In this document: in pieces, positions 1 to 31,863 of the stretch
How the letters are laid out: each line of letters starts with the position of its first letter
Position numbering within the stretch: position 1 is the stretch's first letter
IMG/VR virus record: IMGVR_UViG_3300028175_000001
DNA: 64,000 nt
Origin: a virus
Taxonomy: Duplodnaviria; Caudoviricetes
Strand: one strand, 5' to 3'
Made by a program: the position numbers and the translations under genes
Notes under the pieces: model-generated
The model's database searches: none
Seen by the model: the letters and a program-made list of their open reading frames with translations, nothing else
What the model was told of the DNA's origin: nothing

Positions 1-593
1 CCACCACTTTCATCTACCAAATATGCCTCGAATGAAACACCTTTGTATTTTTTCTGCAAAGACAAAAATGATGTTATGTTCGACTGTGCATCGTCATATA
101 ACCTAACTCTGGTATATTTACCCGTTTTCAAATATTTATTGAAAATAATTTTTTTGTTTTTTGCAGATGAACCAAGATTTAGGTTCCCCGCACGTTCAAC
201 ATAAACATCATCTATCGGAATTCCTTGTTTTCTAAATGTGTCGAGAAACTTCTTCTTGTCATCAAAGTCTGCTCTCGCCGTAACTATAATCATCTTCGCC
301 CCCTTTGCAATCACGTTTTTTGCGATTGCTTTCATTTTAGCGATCATGGGTTTGATGGGTTCGGACGTTTTCAGAAAATGTTCTGCGTCTCCAAACTCCC
401 CAAAATCAAACTCTTCTCCGTCTTTCAGTTTATAGCTATTAAACTCTTGGTTGTTTAATTTTCGAGCCACTCTACCATCCTTTTTAACCAAGATGTTAGC
501 GGTAGTCTTGAATAAAGTCTCGTCTATATCGAAAATGGTCAGTCCTATTCCTTCTTGAACTTTTTCTAAAACGTATTCTTTGAATGTTTTCAT
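1..593 (-). CDS. HAD-superfamily phosphatase (PNKP-phosphatase-like) with N-terminal capsid-targeting-like peptide; 3' end runs off the window
   Basis: Manual translation from ATG 593: MKTFKEYVLEKVQEGIGLTIFDIDETLF...VTAR...AKNKK...LYDD, containing HAD motifs I (DxD), II (T), III (K) and IV (DD); no stop before base 1. Confidence 0.8.
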   Translation of the reverse strand, partial: MKTFKEYVLEKVQEGIGLTIFDIDETLFKTTANILVKKDGRVARKLNNQEFNSYKLKDGEEFDFGEFGDAEHFLKTSEPIKPMIAKMKAIAKNVIAKGAKMIIVTARADFDDKKKFLDTFRKQGIPIDDVYVERAGNLNLGSSAKNKKIIFNKYLKTGKYTRVRLYDDAQSNITSFLSLQKKYKGVSFEAYLVDESG

Positions 594-877
594 AGGTATT
601 TGTTGTCTATTTTTTGAATCTCTATTCCTGTAATATCTTTACCATATCTTTTCTTTGCATGATTTATTACTTTTGACAAACTGTCCTCAGAACCAAAAGA
701 AAGATCAGTATGAGCATCGACCGCAGATGACAAATTAGTTGCTGATAATGCCTTATAATGTATCAGTGCAATATGAGTTATATTGGGTCTAATTCTAGCT
801 TGTGTAGTATGAGACTTTCCACTCTTATCTTTTACTGTAATTTTCTGAAATTTGACATGTTCTTTGAATGTTTTCAT
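590..877 (-). CDS. Small hypothetical protein starting MKTFKEHV (putative internal head protein)
   Basis: ORF 590..907; second Met at 877 matches the starts of its neighbours; stop overlaps the start of the downstream gene. Confidence 0.65.
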   Translation of the reverse strand: MKTFKEHVKFQKITVKDKSGKSHTTQARIRPNITHIALIHYKALSATNLSSAVDAHTDLSFGSEDSLSKVINHAKKRYGKDITGIEIQKIDNKYL

Positions 878-1167
878 TCTGTTTCGTTCCAACCTGTTTT
901 TACACAACCCAAAGTGACATATTTACCCCTACTCCAACTATTAGTCTGTTCGTTATATTTCAACCACAACTGATTACCCTTTGCATCACAGTGTTGAACT
1001 AAAATCTTATCTTCTATTTCAAATACTCCTGCACGTCTATATCCTTCAAGTGTTGGAATTGTCTCTAAACTTCTAATCCAGAGGGGAGCTTCATGTTCCG
1101 ACACTAACATCTGAGAACACGAAGAAGTTATTACAATCACTAATAACAAAACAATCTTGGTTATCAT
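874..1167 (-). CDS. Putative lipoprotein
   Basis: MITKIVLLLVIVITSSC: basic residue, hydrophobic stretch and lipobox-like SSC; start trimmed from 1191. Confidence 0.6.
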   Translation of the reverse strand: MITKIVLLLVIVITSSCSQMLVSEHEAPLWIRSLETIPTLEGYRRAGVFEIEDKILVQHCDAKGNQLWLKYNEQTNSWSRGKYVTLGCVKTGWNETE

Positions 1168-1177
1168 AATCCTTACC

Positions 1178-1447
1178 TCAATCAAATGCACTAGGTGTTT
1201 TGACCCTCACCCACGGGCCTCGTCTGAATATCCTCGCAGGAATTGCGACTTCTTTTCCTATTGGATGTGTTTTCCAATATTTTTTATCTATACCAACAAT
1301 TCTCGTCAGGAAAGTGTTGTTCTTATTATCAGTCCCATACAGTTCAACTTCAACATCTACTTTCTGTCCGTCGATTTTTAATCCACCAATCCCCTTGAAA
1401 ATACCTTTCTTTATCTCGTTCAATACATGTTCTTTAAATGTTTTCAT
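1178..1447 (-). CDS. Small hypothetical protein starting MKTFKEHVLNE (putative internal head protein)
   Basis: ORF track; N-terminus resembles the T4 internal-protein targeting sequence. Confidence 0.65.
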   Translation of the reverse strand: MKTFKEHVLNEIKKGIFKGIGGLKIDGQKVDVEVELYGTDNKNNTFLTRIVGIDKKYWKTHPIGKEVAIPARIFRRGPWVRVKTPSAFD

Positions 1448-1938
1448 TATGTTCCGTCCTTAGTGGTCATAGAACTCTTAAAGTCCCATTTGTAAAAACT
1501 AACGTCTCCGCCAACAGTAAATCCGTTTGCTTCTTCGCCTTCTTTTTCGTTCTCGCCGTCCATATCACCCTTTTCGGAATCGACTTCTAACATCATGTAC
1601 TCACCTTTTTCTGCCTCTCCTTTGACACCTTCTAATGATTTGTGAGTTTCTTTTGAATAGGGTAGTTGATAATTGGTCGGAACATTATCCATATTCGCCA
1701 CCCACAAATAAATCCATTTGGGTTCATCTACGTAATGAGAAAGATACAACCCCTTTTCAGGAATACTCATTCTCGGTTGCCCCAAAAGTGAAGTATATGT
1801 TTCGTGGAGAGAAATAGTAAAAAAGAGAAATAATGGAATGAACCAAATCAAGAACTTCGGACTCTTCCTTCTGTCTATTAAAATCCACAGACACACCACT
1901 GCAAAAATAATCAAACCCAAAAATAAAAGAACTATCAT
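1447..1938 (-). CDS. Membrane-anchored protein, third gene of the ExbB/ExbD-like cassette
   Basis: Two N-terminal hydrophobic segments followed by an acidic soluble domain; start overlaps the upstream stop by 4 bp. Confidence 0.7.
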   Translation of the reverse strand: MIVLLFLGLIIFAVVCLWILIDRRKSPKFLIWFIPLFLFFTISLHETYTSLLGQPRMSIPEKGLYLSHYVDEPKWIYLWVANMDNVPTNYQLPYSKETHKSLEGVKGEAEKGEYMMLEVDSEKGDMDGENEKEGEEANGFTVGGDVSFYKWDFKSSMTTKDGT

Positions 1939-2648
1939 GGTGAATCCCGTTCTTCTCTACTGTTTCCATAGAAATTACCCATAGAACCAAGAGGTGAGAC
2001 AAACTTTTTCTTTTCAAATGTTACAGGAGAAATAAATCTACCGTCTTGGTCTATTGAAAATCGAACAAATGTTTCCTCTTGACCCTTTTTGAAAAACTTC
2101 TTCTCACCTTCCCAAATCAACCGATATGGGTTGACCTTATGTACTTCTATTCTAACCATAAGTGATTTCTTTGGTGTGAATTTTTTCTTTTGAATAGCGG
2201 GTTGTTTTCCGCTATTGGGTAAAATCATTGTAGAAGACTTCCCCTTCGAATAATAATGTGCGTTCACTATATATTCCCCTTTAGTGATTCCTCTGATAGT
2301 CACCACTTCTCTATTGAGTGCAACCGATGATGTGACACCACCTACAACAATTTGATCGTTTCTGTTGCCCAAATCATCTTTGTCGAGGTGCATGAAATTG
2401 CCTACCGTTCTTCTGAAAGAAACCCGCATTCCCAATGGATCTTCTACATAAAGATCAATATCGTCAGGTGCATCGTGGTTCCATTCCATGATGATAATGA
2501 ACTCTGCTTTTCGTTCAAAATCTTCTTTCTTGGCTTCGGGTTTAATCAATAAAAAGGCTATCATAAACAAAAAAGCAAATCCTACCAAAATGTTGAATAA
2601 CATATCGGTGAACCCGACCGATGATTTATATTTAGAATTGCTGTCCAT
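1935..2648 (-). CDS. MotB/ExbD-like single-TM protein with a YfaP/DUF2135-like soluble domain
   Basis: GFTDMLFNILVGFAFLFMIAFLL is a TM helix with an Asp positioned like ExbD/MotB; DIDLYVEDP and LDKDDLG motifs follow. Confidence 0.6.
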   Translation of the reverse strand: MDSNSKYKSSVGFTDMLFNILVGFAFLFMIAFLLIKPEAKKEDFERKAEFIIIMEWNHDAPDDIDLYVEDPLGMRVSFRRTVGNFMHLDKDDLGNRNDQIVVGGVTSSVALNREVVTIRGITKGEYIVNAHYYSKGKSSTMILPNSGKQPAIQKKKFTPKKSLMVRIEVHKVNPYRLIWEGEKKFFKKGQEETFVRFSIDQDGRFISPVTFEKKKFVSPLGSMGNFYGNSREERDSP

Positions 2649-3109
2649 TAATTACCCGATTCAAAATTTATTAATTGAACTTTTAGTATCAAAGAACAAA
2701 CTAAACCCGTGAGAGTAGTCCAAAGTGCAGTACTCATTCCAATTGCCATGTCAGAGAGAGCTTGTTGAAGTGTAACCGAATTAGTAACATCAATATTAGC
2801 AAAAGCTGTACCTAACATTAAAAGAAACCCTGTAACAGTACCGATCATTCCAAGTACAAGACACGCTTCGGCAATAAACCATCCAACTTCAATTGTTTTA
2901 TCTACGATTGAAGTTTTTTCTAAATCATAAGTTTTTCTTCCAATCCAAAGGGAAGTACTCACAAAAATGATAATAATCAAAAAACTAAGTTTAGTTGCAT
3001 CTGCATAATATAGAATTGGATGTAAATTATAATAATATGTTGTTCCAAAACCCAAAAGTATTAAACAAAATATTAACCACCATTTTAAAAGTTTTCTTCC
3101 TATTTTCAT
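2648..3109 (-). CDS. MotA/TolQ/ExbB proton-channel family protein
   Basis: LGMIGTVTG and GMSTALWTTLTGL match the two conserved ExbB/TolQ TM motifs; about 4 TM segments. Confidence 0.85.
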   Translation of the reverse strand: MKIGRKLLKWWLIFCLILLGFGTTYYYNLHPILYYADATKLSFLIIIIFVSTSLWIGRKTYDLEKTSIVDKTIEVGWFIAEACLVLGMIGTVTGFLLMLGTAFANIDVTNSVTLQQALSDMAIGMSTALWTTLTGLVCSLILKVQLINFESGN

Positions 3110-3223
3110 TTTTAGCCTCTAATAAAATTACTTAAAGTGAATCTTTTTCTTTCAAAATATCACTATTATATAAAACCATTCTTATATTTATTTTATTGCA
3201 AAGGTGTACATTTGAGGCCTTTT

Positions 3224-3577
3224 TCAATTTAATACTATTCTTGATGTCTTTGATTCTTTTATTTTATTTTTACAAAACTCTTGATGAATGTGTATTATTT
3301 TTGTTCTATTAAATGAAACGTCTTCAAACCATTTTCTATGTGCTTCAATTCCTTCTTCAAAAACATCATACCAAATAAACGCCCATTCTTTAGTTTTTTT
3401 TATCCATTTTATATGGAGAATCCCTATAAAATCTACCTCGTCGGTTCCAACTGTTTGAAATATTTCGTTTATTCCTAGACTAATAAGAAAATTAAATTCA
3501 GGAAGGGCATTTAAATACTGTTTAAATTGGGTTTCTATTAATTGTCTAAAAAAATGTTTTTTTCTAGGATTTATCAT
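3224..3577 (-). CDS. Hypothetical protein
   Basis: 117-aa ORF in the main gene orientation. Confidence 0.55.
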   Translation of the reverse strand: MINPRKKHFFRQLIETQFKQYLNALPEFNFLISLGINEIFQTVGTDEVDFIGILHIKWIKKTKEWAFIWYDVFEEGIEAHRKWFEDVSFNRTKIIHIHQEFCKNKIKESKTSRIVLN

Positions 3578-3774
3578 TATTGTTTTTACGTATCATGATT
3601 TAGTTCTCAATCTAAAGTTCGATTGTTTATGAAAAGTTCTGTGTGAACATACCGATAATGAGGAGACATGGCAGTGGGATCGTTAATGTGAACTACCTGC
3701 CAATGCGAGGATGTCCACCAGATAAAACTTGAGAATACCTTTTTGCTGATTCGTAGAAAAACTTTAAATGTCCA

Positions 3775-4092
3775 TTAAGAACTAAAAGTGTCACCATTAC
3801 GATGATGGATTTCCAATTCGTCTTTTTTCTTCCATGCGGTTGCACTTAGTATGGCCCCAAAGCTTAAATGAAACATTGCTCCTGCTCCTAGTGTAAGGGG
3901 CACCCATCTTGACACATCACATTTCACTCCTGGCGGATATCGATTTTTATCATTACAATGTTCTTCCATCTTAATATTCCACACTAACGGAGCAATAAAA
4001 AAATCAACCAAACAAATAAATAGATACAATAATGCCGCCCAGTCTCTCCAGTATCTATTAATATTTTTATTAATATTAAAATTCATTTTCAC
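3775..4092 (-). CDS. Holin-like membrane protein
   Basis: WRDWAALLYLFICLVDFFIAP and MFHLSFGAILSATAW TM segments; basic C-terminus. Confidence 0.5.
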   Translation of the reverse strand: MKMNFNINKNINRYWRDWAALLYLFICLVDFFIAPLVWNIKMEEHCNDKNRYPPGVKCDVSRWVPLTLGAGAMFHLSFGAILSATAWKKKDELEIHHRNGDTFSS

Positions 4093-4103
4093 TACAATTT
4101 TTA

Positions 4104-4361
4104 TTATTTTTCTGTGTTCTGTTGACTTTTTAGATCACCTTTCTTTTTTTTATTTAATGTAACAGAAGCTTTTTTGTCGTATAATAGTGGGTTGTCTTTT
4201 TTGTGTTGAGCTACATATTCATCCCCTTTATACCATGCATCTCGTCGTTTTTCTTGATCGTCTTCTTGAACTGAATCATCATTTTCTGGATCCATTTCAG
4301 CAGAATCTTCCTTGGTTATTTTGGCTTTGATGTTTTTTATGAAATTTCTAAAAGGTATCAT
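4104..4361 (-). CDS. Hypothetical charged protein (MIPFRNFIK start)
   Basis: ORF track. Confidence 0.55.
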   Translation of the reverse strand: MIPFRNFIKNIKAKITKEDSAEMDPENDDSVQEDDQEKRRDAWYKGDEYVAQHKKDNPLLYDKKASVTLNKKKKGDLKSQQNTEK

Positions 4362-4420
4362 ATCGTTATCTTTCTATTATATTTTGTTTAAAATGTGTCT
4401 TGTTTTTATCTTTTTTTGAT

Positions 4421-4567
4421 TTACATATCAGCACATTGTTGTCTGTAATATGAATGCCGATGTCGGCCCTTAGTATTTCCCATCCATCTATAAGGTGTAC
4501 ACAGGGTGCATTTTGGTTGTTTTCTAGTTCTTTTACTTTTTCGTTTACCTACTTTTCGTTTGTTCAT
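4421..4567 (-). CDS. Small very basic protein with CxxC (48 aa)
   Basis: Manual translation: MNKRKVGKRKSKRTRKQPKCTLCTPYRWMGNTKGRHRHSYYRQQCADM. Confidence 0.55.
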   Translation of the reverse strand: MNKRKVGKRKSKRTRKQPKCTLCTPYRWMGNTKGRHRHSYYRQQCADM

Positions 4568-4590
4568 TTTTTCTCGCTGGGTTTGAATAT

Positions 4591-5370
4591 TTATTGTTTT
4601 TTATTCTTCCTATCTAAGGCAAGTTGTACTCCTACAACAAACTTTTTACTTGCTATTTTATATTTATTGGGTGCATATTTTTTTAATAGTCCAAAAAATT
4701 TAGACTGGTCTATATGTTTTTGTAATGAACTATTGACACTTCTGATAGCTAAAAACTCGCCTATTTCAGACATTATTGTAGGATCAAATTCTTTTTGTGA
4801 AGTATAATATTCTATTTCATTTTCGGGGTTTCCTGTTTGAACTTGTTTTTCTGATTTATTTGAAAGAAAAACGTCTTGAACATAATGCATTAATTCATGT
4901 TTCAAGTCTGATTGCATTCTTACGAGGATTTGTTCAACATTCAATATTATGTCATTTTCATTATCTGCATTATGTGCTTCTTTTACGTAATTGGAAACAT
5001 AAAACGTAATTGCGGGATTACCTGTTTTTACGTGTTCTGTGTCATAATAAGAATTATAACTTGCTGGTTTGTTATCATAAATTAAGAATAATGTAATATC
5101 ATCATTTTGGTCAACGTCCCAATCTGGATAAGGCATATCTTGATGGGGGTTTTTATATACTACATCTGTTTTTGTGGTGGGTCTAATAAAATGTTTTATT
5201 CCATGTTTTCTTGCAAGTTTTTTAATTGTAGTAGAAAAACTATACATTCCAATTTCATTTATCATATGCGAAAAAGCAAATGTAAATAAAGTGGTCTCGA
5301 ATTGTTTATATATCTTGGGGGGTATCTGTACTAATCCCTCGCTCAAAGCAAAATTTTGAAATGTCTTCAT
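4591..5370 (-). CDS. HExxH zincin-like protein with capsid-targeting-like N-terminus
   Basis: Starts MKTFQNFALSE; contains DLKHELMHYVQD; TATAAATA late promoter upstream. Confidence 0.65.
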   Translation of the reverse strand: MKTFQNFALSEGLVQIPPKIYKQFETTLFTFAFSHMINEIGMYSFSTTIKKLARKHGIKHFIRPTTKTDVVYKNPHQDMPYPDWDVDQNDDITLFLIYDNKPASYNSYYDTEHVKTGNPAITFYVSNYVKEAHNADNENDIILNVEQILVRMQSDLKHELMHYVQDVFLSNKSEKQVQTGNPENEIEYYTSQKEFDPTIMSEIGEFLAIRSVNSSLQKHIDQSKFFGLLKKYAPNKYKIASKKFVVGVQLALDRKNKKQ

Positions 5371-5454
5371 TTTCTTTTTCTGACCGCCTGTCTATAAAAA
5401 ATTCAGATATGATTACTTTATTAAAATAATCATTTACTCGCATATCATTATCAC

Positions 5455-5462
5455 TATTTATA
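5455..5462 (-). promoter_or_regulatory. T4-type late promoter TATAAATA
   Basis: Exact match to the gp55 consensus in the intergenic region upstream of 4591..5370. Confidence 0.65.
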
Positions 5463-5475
5463 GTGTATTTTTTTA

Positions 5476-5709
5476 TTATGCAACGTCATTTTCAATATCT
5501 TCACGGGAAATGTCTTTGGCCTTATCAAACACAACTTCAGAATGGGGGATTTCTGATGAGGGTAATAAATTTCTAGCTATTTCAATTTTTTTAGCACCGA
5601 GTTCGGACAACACTCTGTCGTTCATTAAAGCGGAAAAAACAGCTTTTGCTTGGGTGTGGTCTCCATCCGAAATTTTATTTAAAAGATCATTTGAACTATA
5701 ATCCATCAA
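5476..5709 (-). CDS. Small helical protein, possibly gp67-like prohead core protein
   Basis: AKAVFSALMNDRVLSELGAKKIEIA resembles marine T4-like gp67 proteins from memory; late promoter upstream. Confidence 0.4.
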   Translation of the reverse strand: MMDYSSNDLLNKISDGDHTQAKAVFSALMNDRVLSELGAKKIEIARNLLPSSEIPHSEVVFDKAKDISREDIENDVA

Positions 5710-5748
5710 TTCTCCTATAATGAGGGTTTAATTATATATGTATCATTA

Positions 5749-6351: not shown

Positions 6352-6475
6352 AATTAACTTTTAATGTAATGTTATTTACTTAAAACACCCAATTTCAGGA
6401 TATTTCTTAAGTCTAGTAACTATTGTAACACGCTTACTAGCATATGGCAAGACTTTTCTTGACTATTATTTTACA

Positions 6476-6943: not shown

Positions 6944-6965
6944 TTTGTGTTTCCTTTTATGACGT

Positions 6966-6998
6966 AAAAAACGACAAGTAGTAAACTTGTCGTTTTTT
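6966..6998. terminator. Bidirectional intrinsic terminator
   Basis: AAAAAACGACAAGT-agtaa-ACTTGTCGTTTTTT, a perfect 14-bp inverted repeat. Confidence 0.85.
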
Positions 6999-7017
6999 AA
7001 CTAATATTATTTTAAAT

Positions 7018-7239
7018 TTATTTTTTAGAATAAATTCCCCATAATACCCAAACAGCAACTAATCCAACAAGTCCTTCATTGCCCAATTGCTTTACTATTC
7101 CTACTACTGATCCTACGACATCCAGTCCGATAAATGGAACTGCCGCTCCAAATATTATTTGAAGCACAACTCCAAGTGCTATAAACGCTAATCCAATTTC
7201 CGTGATGGAACGAATCCATCCAAGAGTTTTTTCTACCAT
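7018..7239 (-). CDS. Small membrane protein (73 aa)
   Basis: AGGAG RBS before ATG 7239; hydrophobic segments. Confidence 0.7.
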   Translation of the reverse strand: MVEKTLGWIRSITEIGLAFIALGVVLQIIFGAAVPFIGLDVVGSVVGIVKQLGNEGLVGLVAVWVLWGIYSKK

Positions 7240-7734: not shown

Positions 7735-7759
7735 TATTATGATTATTAATTTCTTGTCA

Positions 7760-17973: not shown

Positions 17974-18285
17974 CTATTGATCACTAAAAATTGACTTAAA
18001 TTTTATATCAACATTTTGTTTTTTTACTTTATCTTTTTTAAATTCATTTAAAAGATGTTGCAAATTTCCTTGTTTTTCTTCTATACGCAATTGCTTTTTA
18101 CTCTTGGGTTCTTCTCTTAACTTAAACATTCTAACGATAGAAGAAATGGTTTCAGTATCACTCTTATTTATATTTTTCTCTACCAACACATCTATTACAT
18201 TTTTTGCAATACTGTAACTGATATCATATTTTTCTGCAAGAATTGTAGTTTCTTTTTGTTGTCTAAAAGCCGTGAAATCCAGCAT
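17974..18285 (-). CDS. Hypothetical protein
   Basis: ORF track. Confidence 0.55.
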   Translation of the reverse strand: MLDFTAFRQQKETTILAEKYDISYSIAKNVIDVLVEKNINKSDTETISSIVRMFKLREEPKSKKQLRIEEKQGNLQHLLNEFKKDKVKKQNVDIKFKSIFSDQ

Positions 18286-19033
18286 GTTTACGTCCGTATT
18301 TAAGATAAATCATAGAACCGGTTAGTTCATCTTGTAACACAATGGGTTTGCTTGGATTAGCTCTTCCATATTGTCTAATGGCTTCTCCCGTATCATCATT
18401 GCCTACATATTGTTCATATTTAGCATATCGACGTTTACCGTATCTCGCTCTCATAAAAGTTTCTGGTTTAACTATAAAAACCTCTGAACCAGCAAATGTG
18501 CTTCCTTTTTTTATTTTCTTCTTCTTTATTCCTGGTTCTGATTGTCCTGGAATAGAGGGATTTTCAACACCGAGCCCTGCAATAGCGCCTCCACCAGCGG
18601 CCAATCCGTCTTCGTTCAATTCTTCTTCTCTGCGGCTAATTTCATCTATTAATAGACCAATTTCTTTTTTATTATATTGACATTCTTGTAAAAATGATGT
18701 ATATTTTTTTTCTAAAAATGTCTGATCATAATATAATTTTGCGTTTTTATTTTCTTCTTTCAGTAAAAACAGCGCCGCTACAAAAGTAGCAAATTTTGTT
18801 GATCCCCCAGGAACTTTCGCTAAAATTTTTTTTAAATTAAAAACCAATGTATCTGTTAATGTGTATGATTCTTTTTCTTCTTTAGTCTTTAATTTACTTC
18901 TTTTTTTAAGAATTTTTCCGTTTTTATCAATAATCCCCAATTCAAAAGCTTTCGTGCTACTAAAAGGAGTCGCAAGTCTTTTAATAAACGTATAAACAAA
19001 AAATATATTACCTGCGGCTGAAGCTAATCCCAT
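18263..19033 (-). CDS. Conserved marine T4-like hypothetical/virion protein
   Basis: FIKRLATPF..TKAFELGIIDKNGK and RYAKYEQYVG motifs. Confidence 0.7.
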   Translation of the reverse strand: MGLASAAGNIFFVYTFIKRLATPFSSTKAFELGIIDKNGKILKKRSKLKTKEEKESYTLTDTLVFNLKKILAKVPGGSTKFATFVAALFLLKEENKNAKLYYDQTFLEKKYTSFLQECQYNKKEIGLLIDEISRREEELNEDGLAAGGGAIAGLGVENPSIPGQSEPGIKKKKIKKGSTFAGSEVFIVKPETFMRARYGKRRYAKYEQYVGNDDTGEAIRQYGRANPSKPIVLQDELTGSMIYLKYGRKHAGFHGF

Positions 19034-19442
19034 TTGGTGTTATCTCTCGTAATCTGTTTGCTATTTCTAAATTTACTCTTATATCACTACTAATAATCTT
19101 TTCGCCATTTATGCTTGATATTTGTTCTGGCATGAATTCTAAATATATCAAAAAAGTTTTTAAATAAGTCCAATATTTTTGAGATATTTTCAAAAATAAT
19201 ATTCTAGATAAAACCTCAACTGGAAAAACATTTCCTAATGTTATTATGTGATTTAAAATTAATCTTTCCTTTAAATCACCACCTAAATGATATCGATTCA
19301 ACAATCTTTTCAGGTATTTTATAATTTTTAAATCATTATGAAAATCTTGTTCACTTAAACATTGAGGATTTTCATAATATTTCATTGCATATAATATATA
19401 ATTATCTTTATTCAAATCATCAAACACTGGTTTTTCTTTCAA
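19008..19442 (-). CDS. Conserved marine T4-like hypothetical protein
   Basis: YAMKYYENPQC...DFHNDLKIIKYLKRLL...ERLILNHII. Confidence 0.75.
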   Translation of the reverse strand: MKEKPVFDDLNKDNYILYAMKYYENPQCLSEQDFHNDLKIIKYLKRLLNRYHLGGDLKERLILNHIITLGNVFPVEVLSRILFLKISQKYWTYLKTFLIYLEFMPEQISSINGEKIISSDIRVNLEIANRLREITPNGISFSRR

Positions 19443-23347: not shown

Positions 23348-23941
23348 CTATGCTAATACAGTATGTGTAACTGCGGTCACTCCTGACATCACTAATGATG
23401 CATCAGCAGGAGTTCCTCCTTGATCTTTAAGAGTTCCGCCAGCAAGTACAACATTTGCACCACCGATTGTCATAACATCACCTGTGGCAAGTGTCTGACT
23501 TGCAACCTGGAAGGTAAGTCTGTTTGTACCCGTACCAGAAGTATATGCACATGTATGATCTGCAGAAACATCATTAGCAATAACAACAGTTGGATTTCCT
23601 GTAACTGTTATAGCCTCATCCCATGTGATTGTAACCGAGACTCTTTGCGAACTTGAACCTGCTGTATGATCAGTAGTGGCCGTTGTTCCTGGTGAAAATC
23701 TAAATGATGTAATAGTTGCTGTTTTAAGACCAGTAGTCGCAGAAGCACCCGCTAATCCACGAATTGCTACTAGCACTTCTGGATCTGCGCTTGTATTGCC
23801 ATTTCCTGTAGCCGCTCCATCTATTACCCATCCAGCATTAGTTGCATAACATTCTGCTTTGTTGTAATCTGAATCTTCATCTGCAGGCAAAAACTTGGGT
23901 TTATTATTATCTGCCGCGGCAGTAGTTCCCCATAAAGCCAT
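23348..23941 (-). CDS. Virion structural protein with Ig-like C-terminal domain
   Basis: MALWG...KPKFLP, PEVLVAI, YTSGTGTNRLTF. Confidence 0.7.
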   Translation of the reverse strand: MALWGTTAAADNNKPKFLPADEDSDYNKAECYATNAGWVIDGAATGNGNTSADPEVLVAIRGLAGASATTGLKTATITSFRFSPGTTATTDHTAGSSSQRVSVTITWDEAITVTGNPTVVIANDVSADHTCAYTSGTGTNRLTFQVASQTLATGDVMTIGGANVVLAGGTLKDQGGTPADASLVMSGVTAVTHTVLA

Positions 23942-23981: not shown

Positions 23982-26900
23982 TTAGTTAACAACAAAACCT
24001 TTTTTTTGCCGTTGTTCATTTGATTGAATAAATCTTGAATATAAATCTATATTTTCAAAAGTTTTAGGTGGATCTGTAGTATAAATGCCTTGTCCCGTTT
24101 TATCTTTTCCAATAGCCGGAATGCCTTCGTCACCTATAATACTATTTCCTTTTTCTGTTAATTCTTTAACACCAAATCCTAACATCATTTCAATAAATTC
24201 TTCCATAGCCATATCTTGATCATCATAAGCAGATTGAACATCGGCTAAAGTAATTGTCGCCAATGCTCCTTCTTTATTTTCTAATCTCAATTTATCAGGA
24301 GTTTCTTCAATTTTATAAAACGAATAGTCTTCTATATTTTTAATAGAAGTTCCCATTACATAATGAATTAGCTGTTCAAAAATTTTATAGGGATCTCTAT
24401 CATTAACAGTGATGTTTCCTTCTTTAACATCTTGACCAGGAGTAGTTTTTCTATAGGTGTTGGCTAACTTGTCAGTACCCCATTCTCCAGCTCTTTCATC
24501 GACTTTTGGTTCTATTGGTTTTTTTCTATCTAACAAAACTTTTTCAAGTTTTAATCTTGATTTAGTGATCATATTATCATTTTCTTGCGATATAATAGAT
24601 TCATACATGCCTTGATTATCCCCGAATTCCTCATATTGGCGTCTGCTAAAGCCCATTTTTTTAGCTAAAGCTTCCCAATCAGATATTTTATGTTCTTTAT
24701 TAGGGCCCGTGATTTCTTTTGCAATAGATTTTGCTTGATTCATCAAATAAAGTTTATTTACTATTGGATTGTTAGAAATTCTTGACTTAAATTCTTCATT
24801 AACTGCTTCTTCGACTTCGTTATTTTTTAAAAAGCCATCTCTTTTTCTTGATAACATTCGCATGTGATCACGATCTTTCCCGGAAAGATATTTTAAGTGT
24901 TTAGTTCGACTATGAAATTTATCAATTTCTTTATCGATTGATTTTAAATTTTCTATCATGTTATCCTCGTTTTTAAAATATTTTTTAGAAAAAGCCTTTG
25001 CGAATTTAACTGATTGGAGTTTCCGTTTATTTCTTACCTTGCCGGAGTTATTTCCATAATTTGCACTTGCTCCACCAGAACCTCCGGGTTCTCTCCCTTG
25101 AACTTCGGCTTTACTTGCGGCTCTACTAAGTAATCCTGTAGTTATTTCATTTACTTCATCGTTTTCTCCATGTCGTGCATAAAAAAGCCCGGATTGATTT
25201 TTTATCGAATCTTTACTTTGTGAATGATCTTGATTAATAAATTCTTCAGGAAAAGATTTAGCCATCATATCTAAAACAATTTTTCGTGGTTCTATTTCAT
25301 TATCAATGTCCTGAACGGAAGGAATTTTTCCTGAGGCGGCTATTTGTGCAAGTTTTTTAAAATATAAGCTATCAATACTATTTCTATGTTTTTTTGCATA
25401 AGCGGATAATTCTTGAGAAAGATCACGCAATTTTGTTTTCACGGCCGCTTCACTAAGTTCAACTTCTTCAATATACATATTCAATTCATATGAACCCTTA
25501 GGCATTCCGAAGACTTGAAATTGTAACCTTTTCTTTTGTGGTTTACCGTTTTTCTCCAACCCGATATTAAACCTTTTGGTCTTTCCTTCACCTGGCCGAC
25601 CTCTTCCAGAAGCACCGCCCATAGTGACTTCTCTGTTCCAATCGCCATCATCTAAATCATACCCCTGTTTTTCTGCATAATCCTTGGCATGAGTTGCCGC
25701 AGAGGTAAAAGTTTTGTGATAGATTGTATATTTTGATGCGGCTTCACCAAGTTCAACGTCTTCTTTGATTTTGAAAAATTTATTAAATTCCTGCCACATT
25801 ACTTTTTCTTGGTCTGGTTTTGTTTTATTTTGTTTAAAGATGAGTTCTAAACCACTCTTCATTTTAGGAATATTATTTTTATGTTTTTGTTTTAACATTC
25901 TGAAGATATTTTTAGATTGTATTCTTGTATTTTTCCACTCATCCCAACTATCACTGGCCTCTTTAACAATTTCATAATTGCCTCTGAACTGATAATCTAA
26001 ACCATTCAGTGTTGACTGTGCATCTTTTTCTGATTTGAATTGGAGTGCATCTTTTGTGTTATCAACATCTCTGGACTTGTTACTCAAATATCTATTCTTT
26101 GCCTTTTTGTATTTGATTACATATGACATTTCACCAAGTTCAACTTCTTCATTTTGTCTAAATTTTTTCAATGCCATCTTTGCAATTGTGTCCATTTTAG
26201 CATCAGTCTGGGATGACCATTCCGAATCATATTGATTGCCTCCAGAATTGTCGAAAAGTTTTAAATCATATTTGTCTGGGAAGTATTTTTTATAGACGGA
26301 ACGTTCACGTTGACTACCCATACTACCCATGATAGGGGAAATGGTGTTTATAATTAAACTATCTTTTGTCGAGTCATCAATCTTACCATCTTTTTTGAGT
26401 TTTTTAATAATTTCTACTGCATATTTGACAAACTCGTTTTTATATTTTGATGCGGCTTCACCAAGTTCAACTTCCTCTTCTGCTGGTTTAATCGCAAGAA
26501 GTCCTTGTTTCGATTTAGGAACTTTAAAGTGTTTAATTGCTAATTGTTTTGCGGGCCATATTCCATCTGCTTCACTTTTCTTAATTTCCAATTGCTTTCC
26601 ACCATATATTGCAATCCATCCTGCAAATTTTTCAGCAACTTCAACTTCTTCTACCATTGAGACAGTTAGTTCGGGGTAATCACCTTTTTGCATAAGGTCA
26701 TCCATTACCTTTTTAGCTTTACCACCAGAACTGTATGTGCCAAGTATTTTTCCATTTTCGTCTTTAATTGTATACTTACCTTTTTTCCATCCTTCAGCAA
26801 CTTCTTCAGATTTAGCGCCCGGTTTAATTTTAGACCAGTTGACTGATTTTAAATCGCCATAATATACTTTTTTTCCATTTTCCTTTTTCCACCATCTTAT

Positions 26901-28223
26901 AGTTGTCGTATCATTTCTAGCGTCCACATGATATACTCCCACCATCTGATCATCGGGAGTCTTGGGCGAAAAATTAATTTTATCTGCAATTCTTTTGGCT
27001 CCTGTACCAGTTTTAACTACCTGAAGAATTTCTCCTGTCGTTACATTAATAATGTTATATGGGCCGGGCTTCCATCCTCCATGCCTTTCATCAAGTTCAA
27101 CTTCCTCGAAAAACTCTTGCCAACTTTTTTTATCAAAATTGAGTTTTGGTATAGATTTTTTCATATATCTAAGTATTTCATCTGTTGATTTGACATCGCT
27201 CACAGCAGTAACTACAATCTTATTGTTTTTCCACACTGCGATTGTTTGACCACCCATACCAAGTTTTTCTAATGTCTTACCATCAGTGGAGAGTAATCTA
27301 CCTTCCAAACTTTCTTTATCATAAAACGCCTGTATGACATCTTTATCTTTTGGTTTAAGTGCTTCATTAAGTTCAACTTCTTCTTTCAAAACAAAATTCT
27401 TAACAACATCTTTATGAACTACCCCACCACGTTTCATGTAATCTTTGAGTAATGATACTACCCAATTTTGATCTTTTCGTGGCAATTTCTTCAACAATGA
27501 TCCATATTTGGAATTGTCTGGTGCAACTTCTGTTGGCAATACTCTTGAGCCAGGAACATACATTGTTGCAAAAATCAAAGAATATTCATCAAAAGTCATT
27601 TTAATTCCTTTGAACCAAATTTGATCTCCACCTTCATTGAGGTCAACGGTTTTCTTTTCGATATTTGCATCATAATTTTTATTTATTTTTCTGCATTCGA
27701 AAACACTTTGTCGATTTTTAATTTTTTGACCGAAAGCAAAAATATCTTTAGTATATCGTTTCTTATTTTCTTCAATTCCTTTGTAAATTTCAATTTTTTC
27801 TTTTTTACCCGATAATTTTATACTTTTTTCAGATTTTGTATTTTGTCGAGATTTAATTGACTTATTAATTGCTTTTCTTTTTTTTGCAAGAAATTTATCG
27901 CTATTATCTATATCTCCATCGTTATCTATATCTCCATCTTCTTTGCCAACAGGATCCAATTTTTTCTTTTTTTCACTACGACTCTGTGCTGGCGTTTCAT
28001 CATCATTGTTTGATTTATTAGATTTTTTCTTGACGTTTGCAGTAGCATCTTTTTCACGTTTTTTTTTATCATCAGGATTATCGTCTTTAGCATAATGATG
28101 ATGATGGACATCTCCTTGCTCTTTCAATTTTAAAAATTCTTTATATATTAAATCGTTTTCGGGTTCTGTGAATAAACCGGGCGCAAGTGTTTTCCAGTTT
28201 TCATGAAGTGGGTTCGGTTTCAT
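23982..28223 (-). CDS. Large modular protein (putative internal-head polyprotein)
   Basis: About 15 small Lys-rich modules separated by EEVELxE/EEVAE/EVNE linkers; DGDIDNDGDIDNSD motif near the N-terminus. Confidence 0.75.
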   Translation of the reverse strand: MKPNPLHENWKTLAPGLFTEPENDLIYKEFLKLKEQGDVHHHHYAKDDNPDDKKKREKDATANVKKKSNKSNNDDETPAQSRSEKKKKLDPVGKEDGDIDNDGDIDNSDKFLAKKRKAINKSIKSRQNTKSEKSIKLSGKKEKIEIYKGIEENKKRYTKDIFAFGQKIKNRQSVFECRKINKNYDANIEKKTVDLNEGGDQIWFKGIKMTFDEYSLIFATMYVPGSRVLPTEVAPDNSKYGSLLKKLPRKDQNWVVSLLKDYMKRGGVVHKDVVKNFVLKEEVELNEALKPKDKDVIQAFYDKESLEGRLLSTDGKTLEKLGMGGQTIAVWKNNKIVVTAVSDVKSTDEILRYMKKSIPKLNFDKKSWQEFFEEVELDERHGGWKPGPYNIINVTTGEILQVVKTGTGAKRIADKINFSPKTPDDQMVGVYHVDARNDTTTIRWWKKENGKKVYYGDLKSVNWSKIKPGAKSEEVAEGWKKGKYTIKDENGKILGTYSSGGKAKKVMDDLMQKGDYPELTVSMVEEVEVAEKFAGWIAIYGGKQLEIKKSEADGIWPAKQLAIKHFKVPKSKQGLLAIKPAEEEVELGEAASKYKNEFVKYAVEIIKKLKKDGKIDDSTKDSLIINTISPIMGSMGSQRERSVYKKYFPDKYDLKLFDNSGGNQYDSEWSSQTDAKMDTIAKMALKKFRQNEEVELGEMSYVIKYKKAKNRYLSNKSRDVDNTKDALQFKSEKDAQSTLNGLDYQFRGNYEIVKEASDSWDEWKNTRIQSKNIFRMLKQKHKNNIPKMKSGLELIFKQNKTKPDQEKVMWQEFNKFFKIKEDVELGEAASKYTIYHKTFTSAATHAKDYAEKQGYDLDDGDWNREVTMGGASGRGRPGEGKTKRFNIGLEKNGKPQKKRLQFQVFGMPKGSYELNMYIEEVELSEAAVKTKLRDLSQELSAYAKKHRNSIDSLYFKKLAQIAASGKIPSVQDIDNEIEPRKIVLDMMAKSFPEEFINQDHSQSKDSIKNQSGLFYARHGENDEVNEITTGLLSRAASKAEVQGREPGGSGGASANYGNNSGKVRNKRKLQSVKFAKAFSKKYFKNEDNMIENLKSIDKEIDKFHSRTKHLKYLSGKDRDHMRMLSRKRDGFLKNNEVEEAVNEEFKSRISNNPIVNKLYLMNQAKSIAKEITGPNKEHKISDWEALAKKMGFSRRQYEEFGDNQGMYESIISQENDNMITKSRLKLEKVLLDRKKPIEPKVDERAGEWGTDKLANTYRKTTPGQDVKEGNITVNDRDPYKIFEQLIHYVMGTSIKNIEDYSFYKIEETPDKLRLENKEGALATITLADVQSAYDDQDMAMEEFIEMMLGFGVKELTEKGNSIIGDEGIPAIGKDKTGQGIYTTDPPKTFENIDLYSRFIQSNEQRQKKGFVVN
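25447..27380. repeat. Six dispersed linker repeats with core AAGTTCAAC, encoding E(E/D)VEL[GNDS]E
   Basis: Cores at 25455, 25749, 26136, 26463, 27093, 27369 (spacings 294, 387, 327, 630, 276, all in frame); 31-bp exact repeat at 25727..25757 and 26441..26471. Confidence 0.9.
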
Positions 28224-30206
28224 TTATGCCTCTCCGTCTTTGTGTTGAAGATATTTTTTATCTAAAGGCGTGGCAAGTCTACTAGTTACTTTTATCTTGT
28301 CTTTATGGTCCCTAAATGATTTTTTTGCTTTTATTTTTGCAGAAGCAACATTTCCTGCTTTTACATATCTGCCCTGAGGAGTGTCTATAACTACATCTGC
28401 TTCACTAATAGCCAACCATTTTTTAAATGCCTGATCTGTGTCCATTTCTTCCTTTATTCTGTGTTTAGAATTAACTTGATTCCATAAGTCTTCATCCGCG
28501 ATTAATCTGGTTTTGCCGCCAGTTAAAAACGAATTAACTCTTGACTCTGCCCATTCTTGAGAAGTAGTTCCTGGTTTATGACCAGTTTTCCACGAACTAA
28601 CTCCACGATCATACACTTTTTCTAAAATTTTAAATGAAATGCCTGATTGTTCTGCTTTCCTTTTTAAATTTTCTTCTATAGTGAACTGTGCTTTAGCCTC
28701 ACTTATATTTACAATATGTCCCATTTCATCAATTATAATTTCTTCATTATATCCTGGATGACTGGACTTCATCATTTTCTTTTTCTTTTCTTGTTGTTTA
28801 TTTGCCCACATTTTATGAATCGTTGCTCTAGACGGTCCTTTTTTCAAATTAGCATATGGATTTTCCACTCCTTCAAATTTATTCAGAGGCACACCATGAT
28901 CCTGATGCATAATTAGTCTTGCATTCATAGAAATAAAAGGAATATCTGCTTTAACAAGTTGTGTCAATGCATCTTTATTTTTTGCAAGTTGTCTTACTAT
29001 TTTCTCTAATTCTACATTTCTACCCAAACTAATTCTTTTCCCTCTCCACGGCTCATATTGCTGTTTCAGTTTATCTATCATTTTATTCGAAAATTTTTCC
29101 TCATCAATTATATCTTCTCCCACAACATCAGGAGTTTTTCCTTTATAATAAACATTTCCCTTTAAAGCCTTATGTGCTTTTTTTACATGTTTTTTATGAA
29201 CATTAACTTTTCCATCTTTAAACTCTCCCTTTACTCCTGCATCATCTAAAGCCATTTTTACTTGTAATCCAGTACCCTCTGGCAATCCATGTTTATTATG
29301 TTGCGCCCAAGCAAACGCATATGCTTTATCCGCACCCACTTTCTTTTTTAATGTTTTTACTTGTATTTCTCTTCCAGGGGGGGCTTCTTCATCAGGGCCA
29401 TATCCTTTAGGGGTTTTATCTACTATGCTAACGCCCCAATCTTTTTCTCTTTGTTTTTTTACATCTGCCACTTTTTTAAATAATTTATGTAAATGAGCTT
29501 TCTTGTCTGCTGGTGTTTTGGGAAATTCTCTACCTTCTTTTATTTTATGTGCGGGTACTTTTTCAGGGCGAAGTGCTTCTTTCAAATTAATTTGTTCCGT
29601 TTTTATGGTTTCAAGTTTCATAGCCTTCCTAATTTCGTTATACATAGACTTTGTATCTTTAGCAGATAATTTCGTACCTTTTTTAAAACTATCAATGTCT
29701 CCAGAAACTGCAAACTCTCTTAATTTTGATGCAGACATTCCAGCGGCACCTTCAGCATCGGGATCACGGTCTCCTGAACTTACAAAATCAATATCTGTAA
29801 AATCATAAAATCCATGAGCTTTTCCTTCTACTCCATTATATTGTGATATCCATTTTGAAAATTTACTTAGTCTATCACTACCAACAACAAATACAAGTTT
29901 TTTAAATCCTTTAGAATACAAATCAGATAATGCTTCAAAAACTGTAGGTTTAACATCAATATGAATATGTGGACCTATCGTTTTTTCAACATAATAAAGT
30001 TTTCTTTCTGGACCCAAAGGATCCTTTTTAGCATTCTGAGTAGGAGACAAGCAAATATAAGGTTCTGCTTTATGCTTTCTTGCCTCTGATAAAATCTTTT
30101 TTGCAAGTTTAACATGACCTATAGAAGGAGGATTCATTCTCCCAAAAGTTGCAATTGCCGTCTTTTCTTGCTTTGTTTCTACTAAAAACTTTTTATAAAT
30201 CTTCAT
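28224..30206 (-). CDS. HIGH-motif nucleotidyltransferase (cytidyltransferase/NMNAT-like) fused to a string of small modules
   Basis: FGRMNPPSIGH, VVGSDR, GMSASKLR; starts MKIYKKFLVE; C-terminal VYDRG..SWKTGHKPG..WAESRVNSF module. Confidence 0.8.
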   Translation of the reverse strand: MKIYKKFLVETKQEKTAIATFGRMNPPSIGHVKLAKKILSEARKHKAEPYICLSPTQNAKKDPLGPERKLYYVEKTIGPHIHIDVKPTVFEALSDLYSKGFKKLVFVVGSDRLSKFSKWISQYNGVEGKAHGFYDFTDIDFVSSGDRDPDAEGAAGMSASKLREFAVSGDIDSFKKGTKLSAKDTKSMYNEIRKAMKLETIKTEQINLKEALRPEKVPAHKIKEGREFPKTPADKKAHLHKLFKKVADVKKQREKDWGVSIVDKTPKGYGPDEEAPPGREIQVKTLKKKVGADKAYAFAWAQHNKHGLPEGTGLQVKMALDDAGVKGEFKDGKVNVHKKHVKKAHKALKGNVYYKGKTPDVVGEDIIDEEKFSNKMIDKLKQQYEPWRGKRISLGRNVELEKIVRQLAKNKDALTQLVKADIPFISMNARLIMHQDHGVPLNKFEGVENPYANLKKGPSRATIHKMWANKQQEKKKKMMKSSHPGYNEEIIIDEMGHIVNISEAKAQFTIEENLKRKAEQSGISFKILEKVYDRGVSSWKTGHKPGTTSQEWAESRVNSFLTGGKTRLIADEDLWNQVNSKHRIKEEMDTDQAFKKWLAISEADVVIDTPQGRYVKAGNVASAKIKAKKSFRDHKDKIKVTSRLATPLDKKYLQHKDGEA

Positions 30207-30214
30207 AGAATTAT

Positions 30215-30628
30215 TTATTCAAATGAAGATGGTACTTCTATTAATTCTTTATCAGCAGTCACATAATATTCTATGCCTTCATGAACAATTATTGTATGAG
30301 TTGATCTAAAAGTATCTTCTTTAATTTTTTCTTTATTTTTTTTGCTCTTTTTAACAGTTTGCAATATCTTTTGATACACAACCTTGTCCCCCATAATTAG
30401 ACCAAGGAGCTTATCAAAAATCCGTATAATCATCATTCTTTGTTTTGGATTTGGCTTTTTATCGGCTTCTAAATCTTGCATTGTTTTAAGAAACAGTGCA
30501 TATTCATCTTGATTAATTAAACCTTCTCTTGCTAATCTTTTTAATCGAGCATCAACATCTTCAGTCAATACTATTTTCATATAAGATTCGCCTAATTTGT
30601 TTAAGAGATTTTGTTCTGATACTTCCAT
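30215..30628 (-). CDS. Hypothetical protein
   Basis: ORF track; overlaps the upstream gene stop. Confidence 0.6.
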   Translation of the reverse strand: MEVSEQNLLNKLGESYMKIVLTEDVDARLKRLAREGLINQDEYALFLKTMQDLEADKKPNPKQRMMIIRIFDKLLGLIMGDKVVYQKILQTVKKSKKNKEKIKEDTFRSTHTIIVHEGIEYYVTADKELIEVPSSFE

Positions 30629-31863
30629 TATGCTTTACTCCCAAATGTTTTTGGTGCTAAAAAATTTTGTCTTGAAAATTCTAATCTATCTATTAGTTTT
30701 ATTGCTCCATCAGCAATTGTAACTGCAACAAATCCTTCCGGATTCGTAATTTCAAACCCATTATCGGTTTGAATAAATGTTTTTGTCATGGGCTGAATAT
30801 CTTGTAATTTTTTAATTATTATCATTTTAGCGGCTATAAGAACATTTTGCATTTGAAACATGTTTTTCAAAGCATTTTTATTTTCTGTAAAAAATTTTAA
30901 AATGTCTTCATTTTTTTTACGTCTATTTTCTTTGCCCTTTTCTGATTTTAATTTATCAACCTCGTTAGTTAATTTATGTTGTAAATATTTAATCAATCCA
31001 ATAACATGTGCATTAACATTTCCAATGGGTTTACCCTGCCGTATTTTAAAATTAGCAAATGCTTTAATTTGCGTATTTAAATATTTATCATCTCTTATAC
31101 CGTCAAGTAACTTCTTATCAAGAGTTCTAAATAACTTACCAGCCAGTGAAAGCACACTGAAAAATGAATCAGTTTCTTCTTTAGTAAAAGATGCTATTCC
31201 GTCCATTTTTTCATATTCAGCATCTTTAAACCACACACTTGATGTTTGTTTAAAATTATCAACATTTACATCAAATGTAGCATTCATTTGATTTACTACT
31301 TCACCAGTATATTTTGTATGCCAAACAATGCCTAATTTTGAAGCATTTATTTTTTTCCCTAATTCACTTTTTAATTTAATCGCATATGTTATAGTGTTTG
31401 GAGTAAAAACAATATGCGATTCTCCATCTATAGATTGTATCGTTGTAGGTTTTTGTGGACTGTATAATAAATCCCCTTGATAAACGCCATCCATTCCAAT
31501 ATCTTTAAGATATCTCAAAGAATCTTTTAAAACTTCCTGTAACCCACCCTCGTGATTATTTTCAATGTCTTCATTTGAAAAATTTAATTTGGGTACTTTT
31601 GAAAATGCACCATGCTTAGTGGCTACAAAAAATTTTTCAGTTTCAGGATCGATTCCGGCCACAACTGCAGGAGCCCCATCCCATTTAGTTGTTATTTTAA
31701 TTTGTTTAGAAGAATCCCCTTTTAGTGTTGATCCTAATGAACTTAAATATGTGATTGCTTTTTTTACACCATCAAATCCACCGTTTAAAACTTCATCTTC
31801 TAAATGTTCAAGGTGCTTATTAGCACCCTGAGATTCTAATAAAAATTCTTTAAATAAAAGCAT
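30628..31863 (-). CDS. Ligase-like covalent nucleotidyltransferase-fold protein (DUF6267-like from memory)
   Basis: Motif I TKWDG, motif IV EGFVAV, motif V IKL; starts MLLFKEFLLE. Confidence 0.65.
   Translation of the reverse strand: MLLFKEFLLESQGANKHLEHLEDEVLNGGFDGVKKAITYLSSLGSTLKGDSSKQIKITTKWDGAPAVVAGIDPETEKFFVATKHGAFSKVPKLNFSNEDIENNHEGGLQEVLKDSLRYLKDIGMDGVYQGDLLYSPQKPTTIQSIDGESHIVFTPNTITYAIKLKSELGKKINASKLGIVWHTKYTGEVVNQMNATFDVNVDNFKQTSSVWFKDAEYEKMDGIASFTKEETDSFFSVLSLAGKLFRTLDKKLLDGIRDDKYLNTQIKAFANFKIRQGKPIGNVNAHVIGLIKYLQHKLTNEVDKLKSEKGKENRRKKNEDILKFFTENKNALKNMFQMQNVLIAAKMIIIKKLQDIQPMTKTFIQTDNGFEITNPEGFVAVTIADGAIKLIDRLEFSRQNFLAPKTFGSKA

Follow-up and report, generated by a model that had tools for sequence, protein, structure and literature searches.

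Why should genes for otherwise unrelated proteins of one phage begin with nearly the same ten residues? The question is raised by a 64,000-nucleotide stretch of viral DNA (Caudoviricetes; IMG/VR record IMGVR_UViG_3300028175_000001; this whole stretch is hereafter called the window), in which several gene products share an N-terminal leader close to the capsid targeting sequence (CTS) of bacteriophage T4. Judged by the sequence comparisons below, the leader is probably a genuine T4-type CTS placed on unrelated cargo, predicted enzymes included. By analogy with T4, the carriers probably travel inside the virion alongside the DNA; that they also enter the host with it is rather more likely than not. 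The mechanism itself is known, while its occurrence in an abundant marine pelagimyophage lineage, the natural enzyme cargo and the breadth of the leader in viral metagenomes are new; the value of the finding lies in breadth and cargo and not in mechanism.

A preliminary description of the window had listed eight such N-termini, and all eight were read on the minus strand at starts 593, 877, 1447, 5370, 30206, 31863, 4361 and 18285. Six are strong carriers and two are the weaker matches that the description had already set apart (a slash marks the predicted cleavage point):

3-593, minus strand: predicted HAD-superfamily phosphatase with IFDIDETLF (DxDxT), its 3' end cut by the window edge; leader MKTFKEYVLE/ at 564-593.
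590-877, minus strand: basic protein of 95 residues, isoelectric point (pI) 9.8, no family; leader MKTFKEHVKF, with no Glu at residue 10 or 11.
1178-1447, minus strand: basic protein of 89 residues, pI 9.9, no family; leader MKTFKEHVLNE/ at 1415-1447.
4591-5370, minus strand: HExxH protein of 259 residues, candidate zincin-like metallopeptidase with HE(L/M)MH (HELMH in the window); leader MKTFQNFALSE/GL at 5338-5370.
28224-30206, minus strand: protein of 660 residues with an N-terminal HxGH nucleotidyltransferase ('cytidyltransferase') and a C-terminal DUF5824; leader MKIYKKFLVE/ at 30177-30206.
30628-31863, minus strand: DUF6267 protein of 411 residues and putative function, with a KWDGAP motif; leader MLLFKEFLLE/ at 31834-31863.
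4104-4361, minus strand: weak candidate of 85 residues, MIPFRNFIKN, without the ending of hydrophobic residue 8 plus Glu-10.
17974-18285, minus strand: weak candidate of 103 residues among structural genes, MLDFTAFRQQ, with aromatic residues 4 and 7, Arg at 8 and no Glu-10.

The leaders follow the consensus M-[KL]-x-[FY]-[KQ]-x-[FYH]-[VLIA]-x(1-2)-E. All six strong carriers have F or Y at residue 4 and F, Y or H at residue 7, and five of the six have Glu at residue 10 or 11, the exception being the 95-residue protein. Gene starts of the source phage were scanned over the 64-kb window and 10 kb upstream of it, added by the ENA scaffold L023 with identical gp22 and DUF6267 proteins; relatives were scanned as well. 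The strict pattern ^M..[FY]..[FYH][VILAMFT].{1,2}E, which requires an aromatic residue 4, F, Y or H at 7, a hydrophobic residue 8 and Glu at 10 or 11, occurred at 5 of the 82 called gene starts, where 0.045 would be expected (Poisson P ~1e-9), the expectation being based on the 11 occurrences of the pattern minus Met among 20,004 internal positions. The preliminary description had proposed such a scan with replication genes as the comparison, and among the 82 starts the motif was absent from every gene of the window recognisable as one for replication, recombination or the tail.

The bodies behind the leader are unrelated, Pfam and PHROG giving different families or none, and they comprise enzymes as well as small basic proteins, as had been claimed: the phosphatase, the nucleotidyltransferase and the DUF6267 protein are predicted enzymes, the HExxH protein is a candidate, and the 95- and 89-residue proteins are basic. 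Most carriers have a pI of 9-10. Paralogy was considered as the origin of the common leader and ruled out, the 95- and 89-residue proteins aligning only over residues 1-8. The 90 nucleotides 5' of the carrier genes are dissimilar, and the coding leader alone is held in common.

All long open reading frames (ORFs) of the window lie on the minus strand, and its G+C content is ~31%. It encodes T4-type replication and head genes, namely gp43, gp41, clamp, clamp loader, gp46/47, UvsW, UvsY, gp22 and gp23. A megablast search of the first 20 kb against GenBank phages gave no match; gp43 is 52% identical to cyanophage polymerases and gp23 is 35% identical to T4 gp23. The source appears to be an uncultured marine T4-like myovirus of the pelagimyophage group, since the closest cultured gp23 proteins are those of Pelagibacter phage HTVC008M (64% identity), Methylophilales phage Melnitz (62%) and Pelagibacter phage Mosig (61%).

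In T4 the CTS reads MKTYQEFIAE; it is cut off once, and the internal proteins stay in the head (10.1101/2021.01.19.427310). The IPIII leader named in the preliminary description is thus correctly given, as was also read in the T4 genome (NC_000866), where the strict pattern finds IPII and IPIII (both MKTYQEFIAE) together with gp61.1 (MKTFKEFIKE), and a looser pattern adds ipI (MKTFKEFTST). Amber-suppressor mutagenesis of the T4 CTS assigned targeting mainly to residues 4 and 7 and processing to residues 8 and 10, and Asp at residue 10 stopped cleavage and not targeting (PMC9026906). These targeting and processing positions, 4, 7, 8 and 10, are the ones conserved in the window leaders. The likeness extends to an N-terminal leader of ~10 residues with nearly the same sequence (the window leaders share MKTFKE with IPI), to the aromatic residues 4 and 7, hydrophobic residue 8 and Glu-10, to the presence of gp21 (S77) and gp22, and to carriers that are otherwise unrelated and mostly basic. 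In contrast to T4, the window carriers include large predicted enzymes (197 to 660 residues) and not just small basic proteins, there are at least 6-8 carrier genes against 3 (perhaps 4), and the phage that bears the leader is a distant marine relative, in which its function is putative.

Position-specific conservation was followed in homologues of the carriers. Nearly all of 120 database homologues of the DUF6267 protein, down to 46% identity, start M-x-[ST]-F-[KR]-x-[FY]-[IL]-x-E; an alignment of 40 of them shows no exception at E10 and few at M1 and F4. Among 17 homologues of the HExxH protein, M1, F4, E11, G12 and L13 are invariant, and the spacing from residue 7 to the Glu varies by 1-2. 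Orthologues of the phosphatase at 58 IMG/VR loci, 34-65% identical, nearly all begin M-[KLI]-x-F-[RKLY]-x-[FY]-[IL]-x-E, and a loose form of the leader stands on 84 of the 442 same-strand ORFs of those 58 loci. In Melnitz, four genes in a row at the locus of the DUF6267 and nucleotidyltransferase genes bear leaders, as do at least two further genes; genes 15-18 of Melnitz (EXVC039M) start MQGFKTFLSE, (L)INFSKYITE, MKKFSELTSE and MKKFSEIIEA.

A CTS calls for a prohead protease and a scaffold, and both are encoded by the source phage:

62742-63941, minus strand: gp22 prohead scaffold (T4_CASP), by profile match.
61382-62722, minus strand: gp23 major capsid protein, with FLTE/A at residues 55-59.
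L023:9296-9940, upstream of gp22 beyond the window end: gp21 prohead protease (Peptidase_S77), by Pfam.
Just upstream of gp21 (L023): very basic protein of 132 residues, MKNFREFKDE, pI 11.9, carrying the leader.
L023:8571-8891, ~5.1-5.4 kb beyond the window end, between two leader-bearing genes: protein of 106 residues, 40% Lys+Arg, pI 12, no leader.
Just upstream of gp21 (L023): acidic protein of 192 residues, MKTFKDL, carrying the leader.

Over its catalytic core the protease shares 41% identity with T4 gp21, and it keeps GELxHP and GVSSRG. The NFLTE/A of gp23 aligns in register with SFLTE/A of T4 gp23, which we take to be the maturation cut, after Glu65; because of this register, gp21 is likely to have T4-type specificity and to cut after hydrophobic-x-Glu. 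The scaffold gp22 has 20 [LIV]-x-E sites against 13 expected, the second highest density in the window, a richness that would be expected of a scaffold that is digested. The motif also seems to mark genes in the prohead-core position, because the leader-bearing 132- and 192-residue genes lie upstream of gp21 and the relative G002 keeps both leaders (MKQFREFKDE and MKTFKDL). The 106-residue protein between them may bind DNA within the head, having entered it in some other way.

The genuine CTS reading thus rests on the match to the T4 leader, conservation at the key positions, gp21 and gp22, the gp23 site, leaderless cyanophage homologues and modular breadth, the last two of which are described below. 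Binding to the core, cleavage, retention and ejection are modelled on T4. In the proposed sequence of events, aromatic residues 4 and 7 of the leader would bring a new protein into the gp22-based scaffolding core during prohead assembly; after shell closure, gp21 would cut behind the Glu of the hydrophobic-x-Glu ending, so that the leader would be lost and the mature protein retained in the head with the DNA. At infection the protein would exit with the DNA and act before phage gene expression, by analogy with IPI, IPII, IPIII and Alt of T4. The cargo predicted for the window comprises the HAD phosphatase, the two small basic proteins, the HExxH protein, the 660-residue HxGH nucleotidyltransferase and the DUF6267 protein, and beyond the window end the very basic 132-residue and acidic 192-residue proteins would be added.

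To see how widely the leader occurs, IMG/VR was scanned with ATG-AAA-ACN-TTY-AAR-GAR-YWY, which encodes MKTFKE followed by F, Y, H or L, and at least 126 matches were obtained. Among the 126 matches listed, the ATG was the first after an in-frame stop in 105, and 121 opened ORFs of at least 40 residues; deduplication left 89 proteins in 57 families with unrelated bodies. Of these 89 proteins, 50 had Glu at residue 10, where the background is 6.9%, and 60 were hydrophobic at residue 8, against a background of 30%; by family, Glu at 10 or 11 was the majority state in 35 of 57 and hydrophobic 8 in 40 of 57, and neither position had been part of the search pattern. T4 gp23 was found on 7 of the 20 longer matched contigs and on 6 of the 8 of those with at least 58 kb. 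Matched contigs 35-50 kb long had a CheckV completeness of just 10-25%, which suggests that they derive from large genomes. When the T4-like contigs G006 and G020 were scanned in full, strict matches were found at 4 of 141 and 5 of 322 starts (expected 0.06 and 0.18), and they were clustered.

The leader-bearing bodies found elsewhere include a second HAD enzyme, a DUF6267 relative and a stand-alone DUF5824. An S-adenosylmethionine (SAM) lyase (PF23780, L087:1441-2151) and an ART-PolyVal ADP-ribosyltransferase (PF18760, L111:6037-6813) both start MKTFKEFI.E. Enzymes of these two types are typical early counter-defence enzymes, and such cargo fits delivery with the DNA for this reason; the two proteins are candidates for head-delivered counter-defence enzymes.

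These two enzymes bear on the strongest rival explanation, in which the leader does target the prohead while the proteins act inside the head, as core or scaffold parts, DNA condensers or enzymes on packaged DNA, and not as host effectors. The 132-residue protein of pI 11.9 is encoded upstream of gp21, the position of the prohead core gene 68 in T4, and most T4 core proteins are degraded and not ejected, both of which would suit an in-head role. T4 IPI and IPIII, however, carry the same leader, are ejected and act in the host, and a SAM lyase and an ADP-ribosyltransferase need host targets; action confined to the head is accordingly considered unlikely for the carriers as a whole.

The second question is whether the leader belongs to the proteins that carry it. 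The cyanophage S-RIM44 shares the gene order gp41, DUF6267, cytidyltransferase, and its DUF6267 protein starts MSNVKQLKHLEHLEDE, where the conserved domain begins in the window protein (residue 15), without a leader. The S-RIM44 transferase, the homologue of the 660-residue protein, starts eight residues before FTFGRF, again leaderless, and the strict pattern occurs at none of the 208 S-RIM44 genes. The Pfam profile of the window DUF6267 protein (PF19782, 1e-103) likewise begins at residue 15, after the leader. In alignment-based AlphaFold models the predicted local distance difference test (pLDDT) was <50 for residues 1-18 of the DUF6267 protein and 1-12 of the HExxH protein, the bodies being confident; the leader was modelled in both as a short detached helix, although it is conserved. 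Because S-RIM44 homologues do without the leader, the DUF6267 profile starts after it and its pLDDT is below 50, the leader appears from sequence and models to be a separable add-on module.

The deposited annotation of the S-RIM44 transferase deserves a remark of its own. The 'cytitidyltransferase' of KU594607 (147598-148131) is annotated from a GTG, and an ATG 48 nucleotides upstream gives MALNCIKCYFTFGRFQPP, which restores the nucleotide-binding motif (L025); the GTG start is probably wrong. Start calls also matter for the HExxH protein, for which 221- to 224-residue homologues starting 'MIAET...' were considered as natural leaderless forms and rejected, the DNA showing that their ORFs start MKTFQNFALDE. 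Sixteen database entries (P0133-P0148) start MIAET in this way, and the real ORF starts 35 codons further upstream (L204:3896-4669), so that gene callers seem to cut off the leader of this type routinely.

A short, detached amphipathic helix is what many docking motifs look like, and the peptide might dock its carriers to some other partner, such as the sliding clamp or replisome, a chaperone or the membrane, with no relation to the capsid. Three carriers look like nucleic-acid or nucleotide enzymes (the HAD phosphatase, the HxGH nucleotidyltransferase and the KxDG-containing DUF6267 protein), and the last two adjoin gp41, as such docking would have it. Yet the peptide is nearly identical to a T4 leader that was shown by experiment to be a capsid address, it also stands on small basic proteins beside gp21, its invariant Glu after a hydrophobic residue agrees with the cleavage rule of gp21 and with the gp23 site of this phage, and no recognised replication protein of the window carries it. 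This explanation is thought very improbable, more so than action within the head.

Close relatives of the nucleotidyltransferase and the DUF6267 protein show what is conserved at the level of codons. TTT/TTC, AAA/AAG, GAA/GAG and TAT/TAC vary synonymously at conserved positions, whereas residues 2, 3 and 9 change, the orthologues of the nucleotidyltransferase reading MK[IN]YK.FL.E. It is therefore the peptide that seems to be under selection, at the same four positions as are important in T4, because synonymous codons vary and residues 4, 7, 8 and 10 are kept while 2, 3 and 9 are free to change. The similar, A/T-rich opening codons (ATG AAA ACA TTY AAA GAA) and the presence of three carriers within 1.5 kb might suggest selection on the mRNA (an A-rich unstructured start for translation initiation) or a recombination scar with a functionless peptide, an explanation with hardly any standing against this codon pattern, the conservative substitutions (F/Y, V/L/I), the lack of common upstream DNA, the enrichment of the unspecified positions 8 and 10 across the 57 unrelated families and the expression of cyanophage homologues without a leader.

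Several observations weigh against the T4-type CTS reading and the delivery of the carriers, and they are collected here. The 95-residue protein has no processing Glu, and the proteins at 4361 and 18285 do not combine a hydrophobic residue 8 with Glu-10. The nucleotidyltransferase and DUF6267 genes adjoin gp41, in the replication region, and packaging would not be required for the activity of their products because the cyanophage homologues work without a leader. The largest cargo has 660 residues, compared with 95-193 residues for T4 IPI-IPIII before cleavage. As to late promoters, TATAAATA lies 92 nucleotides upstream of the HExxH gene (5455-5462) and also near gp22 (63991-63998). It occurs, however, 8 times in the window against 12.5 expected and is not enriched, and a gp22-like intergenic late-promoter motif was found only at the HExxH gene (exact) and the DUF6267 gene (ATAAATA); the late-promoter evidence is a weak hint for these two genes because of this lack of enrichment. 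Virion proteomics or other experiments on the carriers were not found in the Melnitz paper or in Sullivan 2010.

With these points set beside the evidence above, the T4-type CTS reading is retained for the leader, and one claim of the preliminary description is narrowed. It had held that the motif defines the injected proteome of the phage; the part that stands is that unrelated cargo bears a T4-type leader, and the part that was too strong is the word 'defines', since the leader does not cover the whole head-internal set. The 106-residue basic protein beside gp21 lacks it, as does T4 Alt, which is packed without this leader (PMC9958956), and two carriers lie outside the range that the description had covered.

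T4 Alt offers a useful likeness as a head-packed enzyme, an ADP-ribosyltransferase trimmed by gp21 and delivered with the DNA, and an ART-PolyVal protein with an MKTFKEF leader exists in IMG/VR. According to a review, further basic proteins of T-even relatives start with CTS-like leaders, and T4-like phages may in general use the CTS to load proteins (PMC9026906). In the internal-protein loci of T2, T6 and the RB phages (cited in PMC9026906 and PMC3012670), a conserved leader likewise precedes diverse, quickly replaced bodies in variable clusters; those phages are close T4 relatives of enterobacteria with small basic carriers of the anti-restriction type, whereas the clade of the window is oceanic and its bodies include enzymes. 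Relatives of the window phage keep the HExxH gene followed by a MKTFKSF protein of 196-197 residues that is absent from the window, and other small leader-bearing genes occur as well, so that the variable cargo resembles the variable internal-protein loci of T-even phages, as far as such an analogy goes. Giant phages of the SPN3US/phiKZ type (PMC5694885, PMC7411985) also have many head-internal ejection proteins, matured by a T4-related protease that cuts after Glu; unlike the window phage, they have other leaders and another cleavage context, with no MKTFKEF-type decapeptide in common.

A broader proposal can be put forward only tentatively, at a little below even chances: that the capsid address known from T4 is of ancient origin and serves the whole T4 superfamily as a portable tag, which in abundant ocean phages of SAR11- and OM43-type hosts would load a conserved enzyme kit into the head, to be delivered with the DNA. 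In the same joint proposal, the kit would consist of the HAD phosphatase, the DUF6267 protein, the HxGH nucleotidyltransferase and the HExxH protein, with SAM lyase and ADP-ribosyltransferases elsewhere. If it is true, one could read from the leader alone which proteins thousands of uncultured phages inject, and these protein families would be marked as counter-defence or takeover enzymes of the first minute. Apart from this proposal, the occurrence of the tag on enzymes of an abundant ocean phage lineage and on dozens of unrelated families in viral metagenomes offers a cheap way to predict, from sequence alone, which 'hypothetical proteins' travel in phage heads. It also places DUF6267, DUF5824 and the 'cytidyltransferase' of marine T4-like phages in a functional setting for the first time, that of early delivery; the cultured relatives Melnitz and HTVC008M allow a direct test. 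Engineers have used the T4 capsid address to load T4 heads with GFP, nucleases and vaccine antigens. In the literature searched, a natural CTS was described only for small basic proteins of T-even coliphages, and for no marine phage.

The carriers themselves were characterised one by one. The predicted phosphatase matches Pfam Acid_phosphat_B at E 6e-6, just under the cut-off, and phrog_415, polynucleotide kinase, at 1e-8. For the 95-residue protein, the ATG at 877 lies inside a longer TTG-started ORF and was taken as the likely real start because it overlaps the stop of the upstream gene 874-1167. By the T4 rule, this protein may be targeted and not cut at the usual place, because it has no Glu at 10 or 11. 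The body of the 89-residue protein resembles a portion of a leader-bearing ORF of 488 residues in L114.

HE(L/M)MH is invariant in the 17 homologues of the HExxH protein, and KWDGAP is invariant in the alignment of 40 DUF6267 homologues. Searches of PDB sequences with the phosphatase, the HExxH protein, the nucleotidyltransferase and the DUF6267 protein gave nothing useful, the last having no PDB sequence match at all. Foldseek found no significant fold match for the HExxH model, the best rows being weak (zincin-like 3e11, E 0.36, probability 0.35), and none for the DUF6267 model, with weak rows for T4 Rnl1 (E 0.5) and an archaeal ligase (E 0.6); by VIA-align the latter model is dominated by helical bundles, with no significant fold match either. 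Because PDB, Foldseek and VIA-align gave no significant match, 'ligase-like' for the DUF6267 protein and 'metalloprotease' for the HExxH protein are used as hypotheses.

The 660-residue protein matches phrog_3041 (2e-59). Its DUF5824 module (residues 495-566) is 52% identical to a stand-alone protein of 211 residues with its own MKTFKEF leader (L172). Cargo modules seem to be shuffled among leader-bearing genes, because DUF5824 occurs both within the 660-residue protein and alone behind its own MKTFKEF. As for the two weak candidates, an orthologue of the protein at 4361 in a relative (G001 848-1174, 38% identity) has a better leader, MKHFRDFMKD, and relatives of the protein at 18285 keep MLDFTxFR(E/Q)Q, with aromatic residues 4 and 7 but no hydrophobic-x-Glu ending.

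Some further genes were seen in passing. In T4, gp61.1 is a 'hypothetical protein' of 54 residues adjoining the primase gene (18966-19130) and has a full CTS-like leader. On the complete 247-kb T4-like contig G020 (L201), an ORF of 440 residues (216788-218110) starts MKTYQEFISEA, one residue off the IPII/IPIII leader, and two further carriers lie within 3 kb of it. In the window, a MotA/TolQ/ExbB-family proton-channel protein (PF01618, E 2e-7) is encoded at 2648-3109 on the minus strand, in the same tightly coupled gene string as the phosphatase and the 95- and 89-residue proteins, together with predicted membrane or lipoprotein-like genes (1447-1938 and 874-1167). Directly downstream of the nucleotidyltransferase gene lies a Lys- and acid-rich ORF of 1413 residues (23982-28223, minus strand) with no family, 27 [LIV]xE sites and no leader, and it is followed at 23348-23941 by a homologue of a cyanophage 'virion structural protein'.

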